Shown piece after piece: positions 49,878 through 50,333 of a stretch of DNA of 64,000 nucleotides (positions are counted from its first letter, which is position 1; every line of letters begins with the position of its first letter). Made by a program: the position numbers and the translations under genes. The notes below the pieces were generated by a model. The model did not search any database. It worked only from the letters and a program-made list of their open reading frames with translations, and was not told the origin of the DNA. The stretch lies in sequence record OL451225.1, one strand, 5' to 3'. This DNA is from Escherichia phage P896.

Positions 49878-50333
49878 CTACTTTAAATCCGCCGACCAAT
49901 TTAATTTTAGCGGTTCTTTATATTCACGGTCCAAAACAACCGGAATCTGGACTTCTCCTTTATACGTCAAAGGACCAACATTATAAGATAATGTTATGTG
50001 AGGAGTATAGTCCGGGAAATCATGTGTTGCGCCAATGGCTCGTGCATACATATGTCTGCAACTAAGATAATCTGAATTCAGTACAAGAACCAGGGTACTC
50101 CCATCATCAGTTTTCCATACTTCCAGGTGACCAGAGTTGGCTACTTCGAAACTACCAGAGGCAACAACATATGGAATATTTACTCTGGAATAACAAATAG
50201 TGGAATGGAATTTTTCACGAGGAACGGGATTAGGTACCTTAAGAGAGCGCTGGAGATTTTCCAGCGCATCAAGAGTTAATTCTGAAAATTTGGCTGCAAC
50301 ATAAAGTCCTTCAGAGACTTCATTTAATGTCAT
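49878..50333 (-). CDS. acb1: 2H-phosphoesterase family protein, Acb1-like (T4 57B position)
   Basis: 151 aa with two H-x-T/S-x motifs (HSTI, HITL) typical of the 2H superfamily; immediately upstream of 57A as T4 57B is. Confidence 0.65.

Follow-up and report, generated by a model that had tools for sequence, protein, structure and literature searches.

Does the DNA of Escherichia phage P896 encode both of the counter-defence genes against CBASS that are known in phage T4, acb1 (gene 57B) and acb2 (vs.4)? The question is raised by two minus-strand open reading frames, which we found, exactly where the initial annotation had placed them, at 49878..50333 and 32809..33087 of the 64,000-nt stretch analyzed here (the window; sequence record OL451225.1). 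The 151-aa product of the first had been read as an Acb1-like 2H phosphoesterase, and the 92-aa product of the second had been proposed as an Acb2 candidate from gene order alone. Our results make it very probable that the window derives from a phage of the T-even group (Tevenvirinae) in which both of these genes are present.

Source of the window and organization of the two loci

Megablast comparison with a phage collection assigned the window to a T-even phage close to the genus Gaprivervirus (VR20, SP18, and VR7). In the same search, the 57B region was 99.0% identical to Escherichia phage 212 and 96–98% identical to VR20, SP18, VR25, and VR7, and the regB region was 97.9% identical to TH41 and 94–95% identical to VR20 and SP18. 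An Rfam scan of the whole window detected two tRNAs only, with no RNA family at the acb1 or acb2 locus. The two tRNA genes, Arg-TCT and Met-CAT, lie at 46909-47061 on the minus strand; T4 has a cluster of eight.

The acb1 gene (T4 gene 57B orthologue; 49878..50333, minus strand; 151 aa, ATG start) has as its neighbor gene 57A (50333..50563, minus strand), which encodes the tail-fibre chaperone (Pfam PF17594 GP57, E 3.2e-30) and is adjoined by gene 1, whose product is a dNMP kinase (Pfam E 1e-76). The order at this locus, gp3, gp1, 57A, and 57B followed by small internal-protein-like genes, is that of T4, in agreement with the earlier assignment of the 151-aa gene to the 57B position. The same annotation had placed this gene upstream of 57A, which must be corrected: in the direction of transcription it is downstream, and the stop codon of 57A shares bases with its ATG (the DNA reads TAATG), an overlap that marks the conserved position of acb1. 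Three plus-strand ORFs antisense to acb1 (49871..50065, 50127..50279, and 49807..49986) were without support and were set aside as chance ORFs.

A run of small minus-strand ORFs of 90–121 aa occupies 48562-49850 and 34279-34578, and their N-termini read MKTYQEF, MQTFHEF, MKTFNELF, or MNIKTYNEF. N-termini of this MKTYQEF type resemble what we take to be the capsid-targeting N-terminus of the T4 internal head proteins, and relatives annotate several of these small ORFs as Ip proteins. The 121-aa ORF that adjoins acb1 probably starts at an internal MNIKTY.

At the second locus, acb2 (T4 vs.4 orthologue; 32809..33087, minus strand; 92 aa, ATG start) lies in the order vs.1, regB, vs.3, vs.4, vs.5, vs.7, vs.8, of which the stretch from vs.1 through vs.5 is arranged as in T4 and the regB match to Pfam has an E value of 5.7e-72. 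The position relative to regB that had been claimed for the 92-aa gene thus holds. The acb2 gene overlaps both of its neighbors, its stop codon the vs.3 ATG and its start the end of the vs.5 homologue (33084..33317, minus strand; 77 aa; phrog_1986). Both acb1 and acb2 therefore sit in tightly packed operons with stop/start codon overlaps. For vs.3, a 115-aa GTG-start ORF (32504..32851) that overlaps the 3′ end of acb2 was rejected in favor of a 101-aa ORF with an ATG at 32809, because this ATG overlaps the acb2 stop codon and agrees with the VR7 and T4 annotation.

Other features of this region bear on its neighbors. The regB ORF as listed (31989-32504, minus strand) has a GTG start; because its Pfam match begins at residue 23 and VR7 RegB has 152 aa, translation probably begins instead at the ATG at 32447. 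T4 vs.6, annotated as a GrcA-like glycyl-radical cofactor, has no counterpart at 33084-33594 (minus strand), where the vs.7 homologue comes directly after vs.5, as in VR7; phage Bp7 additionally lacks vs.3.

Evidence that the 151-aa protein is an Acb1 orthologue

The 151-aa protein aligned with T4 gp57B/Acb1 (NP_049750) over its full length and without gaps, at 83% identity (E 9e-99). It matched the Pfam Acb1 model (PF23474) with an E value of 1.5e-59 and a score of 200 bits, above the 27-bit cut-off, and also matched phrog_755. Among solved structures, Acb1 of Erwinia phage FBB1 (7T26/7T27) was 69% identical over 139 aa (7T26, E 3.7e-62). A single-sequence AF2 model of the protein was unusable (pLDDT 38.8), so the assignment of the fold rests on this crystal-structure alignment, which covers 139 of the 144 residues of the solved chain. 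A protein identical to this one is encoded by phage CJ20.

Catalysis by T4 Acb1 depends on the tetrad H44/T46/H113/T115 (Hobbs et al., 2022; PMC9117128). Residue mapping and the codons themselves showed this HxT/HxT tetrad to be kept as H43, T45, H112, and T114. The two 2H-type motifs noted in the initial annotation can be read directly in the DNA, H43-S44-T45 at 50199..50207 (minus strand; codons cat tcc act) and H112-I113-T114 at 49992..50000 (minus strand; codons cac ata aca). In the T4 enzyme, base stacking is provided by Y12, W74, F107, and W147, adenine is recognized at its N6 by E141, and the C-terminus serves as a lid (PMC9117128). All five of these ligand-contact residues have their equivalents in the window (Y11, W73, F106, W146, and E140), so that 9/9 functional T4 Acb1 residues are present with an offset of −1. 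These findings support assignment of the 151-aa protein as an Acb1 orthologue, a 2H phosphoesterase and, by orthology, a putative cyclic-oligonucleotide nuclease.

Evidence that the 92-aa protein is an Acb2 (Vs.4) orthologue

Alignment of the 92-aa protein with its T4 counterpart was also significant, at 64% identity to Vs.4/Acb2 (NP_049728). The protein matched the structure of T4 Vs.4 with cGAMP (7UQ2) with an E value of 2.6e-28, or 1.8e-40 when the family profile was used, and this profile also found Acb2 of Pseudomonas phage PaMx33 by sequence (E 1.7e-5). In addition, it matched the Acb2/Tad1 hairpin model of Pfam (PF24729; E 1.3e-15, 57.7 bits; cut-off again 27 bits) and phrog_717 (E 1.6e-29), the family in which Vs.4 homologues were found by Jenson et al., 2023 (PMC10097602).

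The T4 Vs.4 hexamer takes up three molecules of cGAMP (Kd ~30 nM); Y8 and F82 stack on the ligand, and Y8, H11, K23, and R79 make polar contacts (PMC10097602). CapV inhibition is lost in Vs.4 mutants of Y8, F82, L29, A66, A73, and A77 and is also abolished by the screen mutations T12I, S74N, and A77I, whereas F33A only destabilizes the hexamer (PMC10097602). In the window, the cyclic-dinucleotide pocket is kept as Y8, H11, K23, S78, R83, and F86 (T4 Y8, H11, K23, S74, R79, and F82), T12 is kept under the same number, and the hexamer-interface residues are kept as L29, F33, A70, A77, and A81 (T4 L29, F33, A66, A73, and A77). Almost all of these ligand and hexamer residues were invariant or nearly so in an alignment of 49 Acb2 homologues retrieved from a search of 5.8 billion proteins, and the six pocket residues did not vary in any of the 49. 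They fall in two near-invariant segments, residues 1-33 (32989..33087, minus strand), which hold the cGAMP contacts Y8, H11, T12, and K23 and the interface residues L29 and F33, and residues 70-92 (32812..32880, minus strand), which hold the interface residues A70, A77, and A81 and the cGAMP contacts S78, R83, and F86.

An AF2 model built with the 49-homologue alignment gave, for the monomer, a two-helix hairpin (pLDDT 87.5) with helices at residues 13-45 and 54-85, in keeping with the helical character that the initial annotation had ascribed to the protein. A Foldseek search of the PDB with this model returned 7UQ2 chains first (TM 0.74–0.78, E 4e-7) and PaMx33 Acb2 (8H2X) next. Sequence, conserved residues, predicted fold, and gene order thus support the 92-aa protein as an Acb2 (Vs.4) orthologue and, by orthology, a putative cyclic-dinucleotide sponge. 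Because the sequence, residue, and fold evidence is independent of gene order, the candidate first proposed from its position now stands on sequence and fold as well.

A hypervariable centre in Acb2 and its bearing on ligand range

Between the two near-invariant segments, residues 34-69 (32881..32988, minus strand) form the distal half of the hairpin and are hypervariable across the family, with no conserved columns among the 49 homologues. This centre includes the positions equivalent to a second, three-fold pocket in which PaMx33 Acb2 binds cyclic trinucleotides through R67 and T74 (Cao et al., PMC10312549). T4 Acb2 has D61 and T68 at these positions and does not bind cA3 (PMC10312549). In the protein studied here, the PaMx33 residues that contact the cA3 phosphates are not kept, their equivalents being T65 and D72; we therefore do not expect cA3 binding of the PaMx33 type and judge it unlikely. 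Membership in the Tad1 family, Thoeris anti-defence sponges with which Acb2 has the hairpin domain in common, was also rejected, as the family profile found only Vs.4 and PaMx33 Acb2, and no Tad1 chain, among PDB matches at E values up to 10.

Alternative readings of the two proteins

The strong difference from T4 in residues 34-69 means that the affinity or ligand range of this Acb2 could differ from that of Vs.4. The protein might, for example, be an Acb2 family member whose range has shifted to cyclic trinucleotides, bound in the three-fold pocket, or to the Thoeris signal 3′cADPR. Ligand spectra do vary among Acb2 homologues, PaMx33 Acb2 binding cA3 and T4 Acb2 not (PMC10312549), and some homologues bind 3′cADPR. 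The T4 residues that line the pocket, Y37, L60, D61, T64, and T68, are replaced by E37, I64, T65, R68, and D72, and the arginine R68 in place of T64 leaves room, as far as sequence can tell, for a different ligand range. The dinucleotide pocket is fully conserved, however, the replacement of R67 and T74 by T65 and D72 puts an acidic residue at a phosphate-binding position, and the model has no counterpart to the additional beta-strands reported in Acb2_43, a Thoeris-binding homologue. On balance, we consider a shifted range improbable and prefer to read the 92-aa protein as a cyclic-dinucleotide sponge of the Vs.4 kind.

For the 151-aa protein, the competing identification is a LigT-like 2′-5′ RNA ligase or a cyclic phosphodiesterase acting on RNA ends rather than an anti-CBASS nuclease. 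The RefSeq orthologues in VR20, VR7, SP18, and T4 are indeed labeled ‘RNA ligase’, as is phrog_755, and the two HxT motifs are common to the whole 2H superfamily. This label is inherited from superfamily similarity, however, and is not evidence of a different function; the 83%-identical T4 orthologue has been shown to degrade CBASS signals, both biochemically and genetically (PMC9117128), the residues that stack on or read the cyclic-nucleotide bases are all kept, and the 200-bit match is to the specific Acb1 model. We accordingly regard activity on RNA ends as very unlikely, and only the idea that one or both genes are decayed or unexpressed remnants without present function seems to us less probable still. 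Promoter-like and terminator-like sites near acb1 and acb2 occur in numbers close to those in shuffled sequence and are not more frequent, so that expression of the two genes is deduced from operon position only, and the absence of an above-chance promoter signal close to either gene could be taken to favor loss of function. Yet both frames are full length with every functional residue intact, dozens of phage genomes retain proteins that are identical or nearly so, and the compact operons with their overlapping stop and start codons argue against decay at either gene. Orthologues of Acb1 and Acb2 that retain their functional residues thus remain the preferred reading of both ORFs.

Probable exchange of vs.5 and vs.4 between T-even genera

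Relationships at the acb2 locus differ from those of the backbone. The Acb2 protein had exact counterparts (100% identity) in Vs.4 of the Dhakavirus Bp7 (AEN93740) and of vB_EcoM-E33, and it shared 98% identity with Vs.4 of VR20. With Vs.4 of VR7, a member of the backbone's own genus, identity was only 64%. At the DNA level, identity to Bp7 was 97.4% for vs.5 and 94.6% for vs.4, compared to 59–73% for vs.8, vs.7, regB, and vs.1. The high-identity block relative to Bp7 extends from ~33300 to 32810 (minus strand), with 90–100% identity in 50-nt bins and 34–78% in the flanks. The comparison with VR7 gave the reverse pattern, with flanks at 94–100% and the vs.4 centre at 48–56% (32851-33000). Because the flanking genes of Bp7 are only 59–73% identical and Bp7 has no vs.3, the acb2 allele appears to be shared across genera and not inherited with the backbone. 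The sequence comparisons indicate that vs.5 and vs.4 were probably exchanged as one cassette between T-even genera. No such pattern was seen for acb1.

It is conceivable that the Bp7-type Acb2 allele, with a centre unlike that of T4 and R68 facing the three-fold pocket, confers a ligand range, or a vulnerability to host sensors, different from that of T4, and that movement of the vs.5-vs.4 cassette between Dhakavirus and Gaprivervirus reflects selection for swapping sponge alleles, with vs.5 possibly a functional partner. We hold this to be unlikely, if somewhat less so than any of the alternatives weighed above.

Proposed mechanism and significance

From the orthology, conserved functional residues, Acb2 fold, and synteny, which are directly supported, we infer by analogy with the characterized proteins that Acb1 is an active enzyme, that Acb2 binds its ligand and forms a hexamer, and that both act during infection. 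Acb1 would act as a metal-independent 2H phosphoesterase that hydrolyzes adenosine-containing cyclic di- and trinucleotides, cutting 3′ of adenosine by acid-base catalysis with the tetrad H43/T45/H112/T114. We propose that, as a consequence of signal cleavage, the CBASS effector is never activated. The two-helix hairpins of Acb2 are predicted to form a hexamer in which pairs of protomers enclose a cyclic dinucleotide, three in all, with the ligand held by stacking of Y8 and F86 and by contacts with H11, K23, and R83, so that the signal would be sequestered. Acting together, Acb1 and Acb2 would block activation of CBASS effectors.

Like T4, this phage would therefore have two independent counters to cyclic-oligonucleotide immunity, degradation of the signal and its sequestration, and with both it should resist many CBASS systems. 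Panoptes-type defences are triggered once decoy nucleotides have been sequestered by Acb2 (PMC12657218); if its Acb2 binds ligand as that of T4 does, the phage should be exposed to such defences.

Both genes are of known kinds, the exact proteins are already present in public phage genomes (Bp7, vB_EcoM-E33, and CJ20), and the result holds no new biology; the hypervariable centre of Acb2 and the cassette-like exchange of vs.5 and vs.4 are the only points of modest interest. The finding is also useful for host-range prediction, and it helps annotation, because most records give Acb2 orthologues the name ‘hypothetical protein’ and call those of Acb1 either that or ‘RNA ligase’. Some phage records already carry Acb1-like or Acb2-like names, the UniRef name of the 92-aa protein is Acb2/Tad1 hairpin domain-containing, and a few records are clearly misnamed (‘RegB-like RNA endonuclease’ and ‘NAD-dependent DNA ligase’).

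Comparison with known systems

The Acb1 protein of the window resembles T4 gp57B and FBB1 Acb1 (7T26/7T27) in length, in the HxT/HxT tetrad, in the stacking aromatics and the adenine-reading glutamate, and in the tryptophan of the C-terminal lid, and its gene shares with T4 acb1 the position after 57A. It differs from T4 Acb1 by scattered substitutions only (26/151 residues). The downstream neighbor of the gene is a 110-121-aa ORF together with an ip9-type gene, whereas in T4 it is ipI.

The Acb2 protein belongs to one family with PaMx33 Acb2 (8H2J/8H2X/8IXZ), as judged from the profile match and a Foldseek probability of 0.85–0.92, and keeps PaMx33 Y11 and K26 as Y8 and K23, whereas overall identity is ~19% and the trinucleotide-binding R67 and T74 are replaced. 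Compared to T4 Vs.4 (7UQ2), it has a centre of 36 residues that exceeds the T4 one by 4 residues and shows no sequence relationship to it, and it lacks the T4 cysteines C47 and C50. In other respects the likeness to Vs.4 is close: residues 1-33 and 70-92 hardly differ, every cGAMP-contact and hexamer-interface residue is kept, the fold is the same two-helix hairpin, and the gene has the same place between vs.3 and vs.5.
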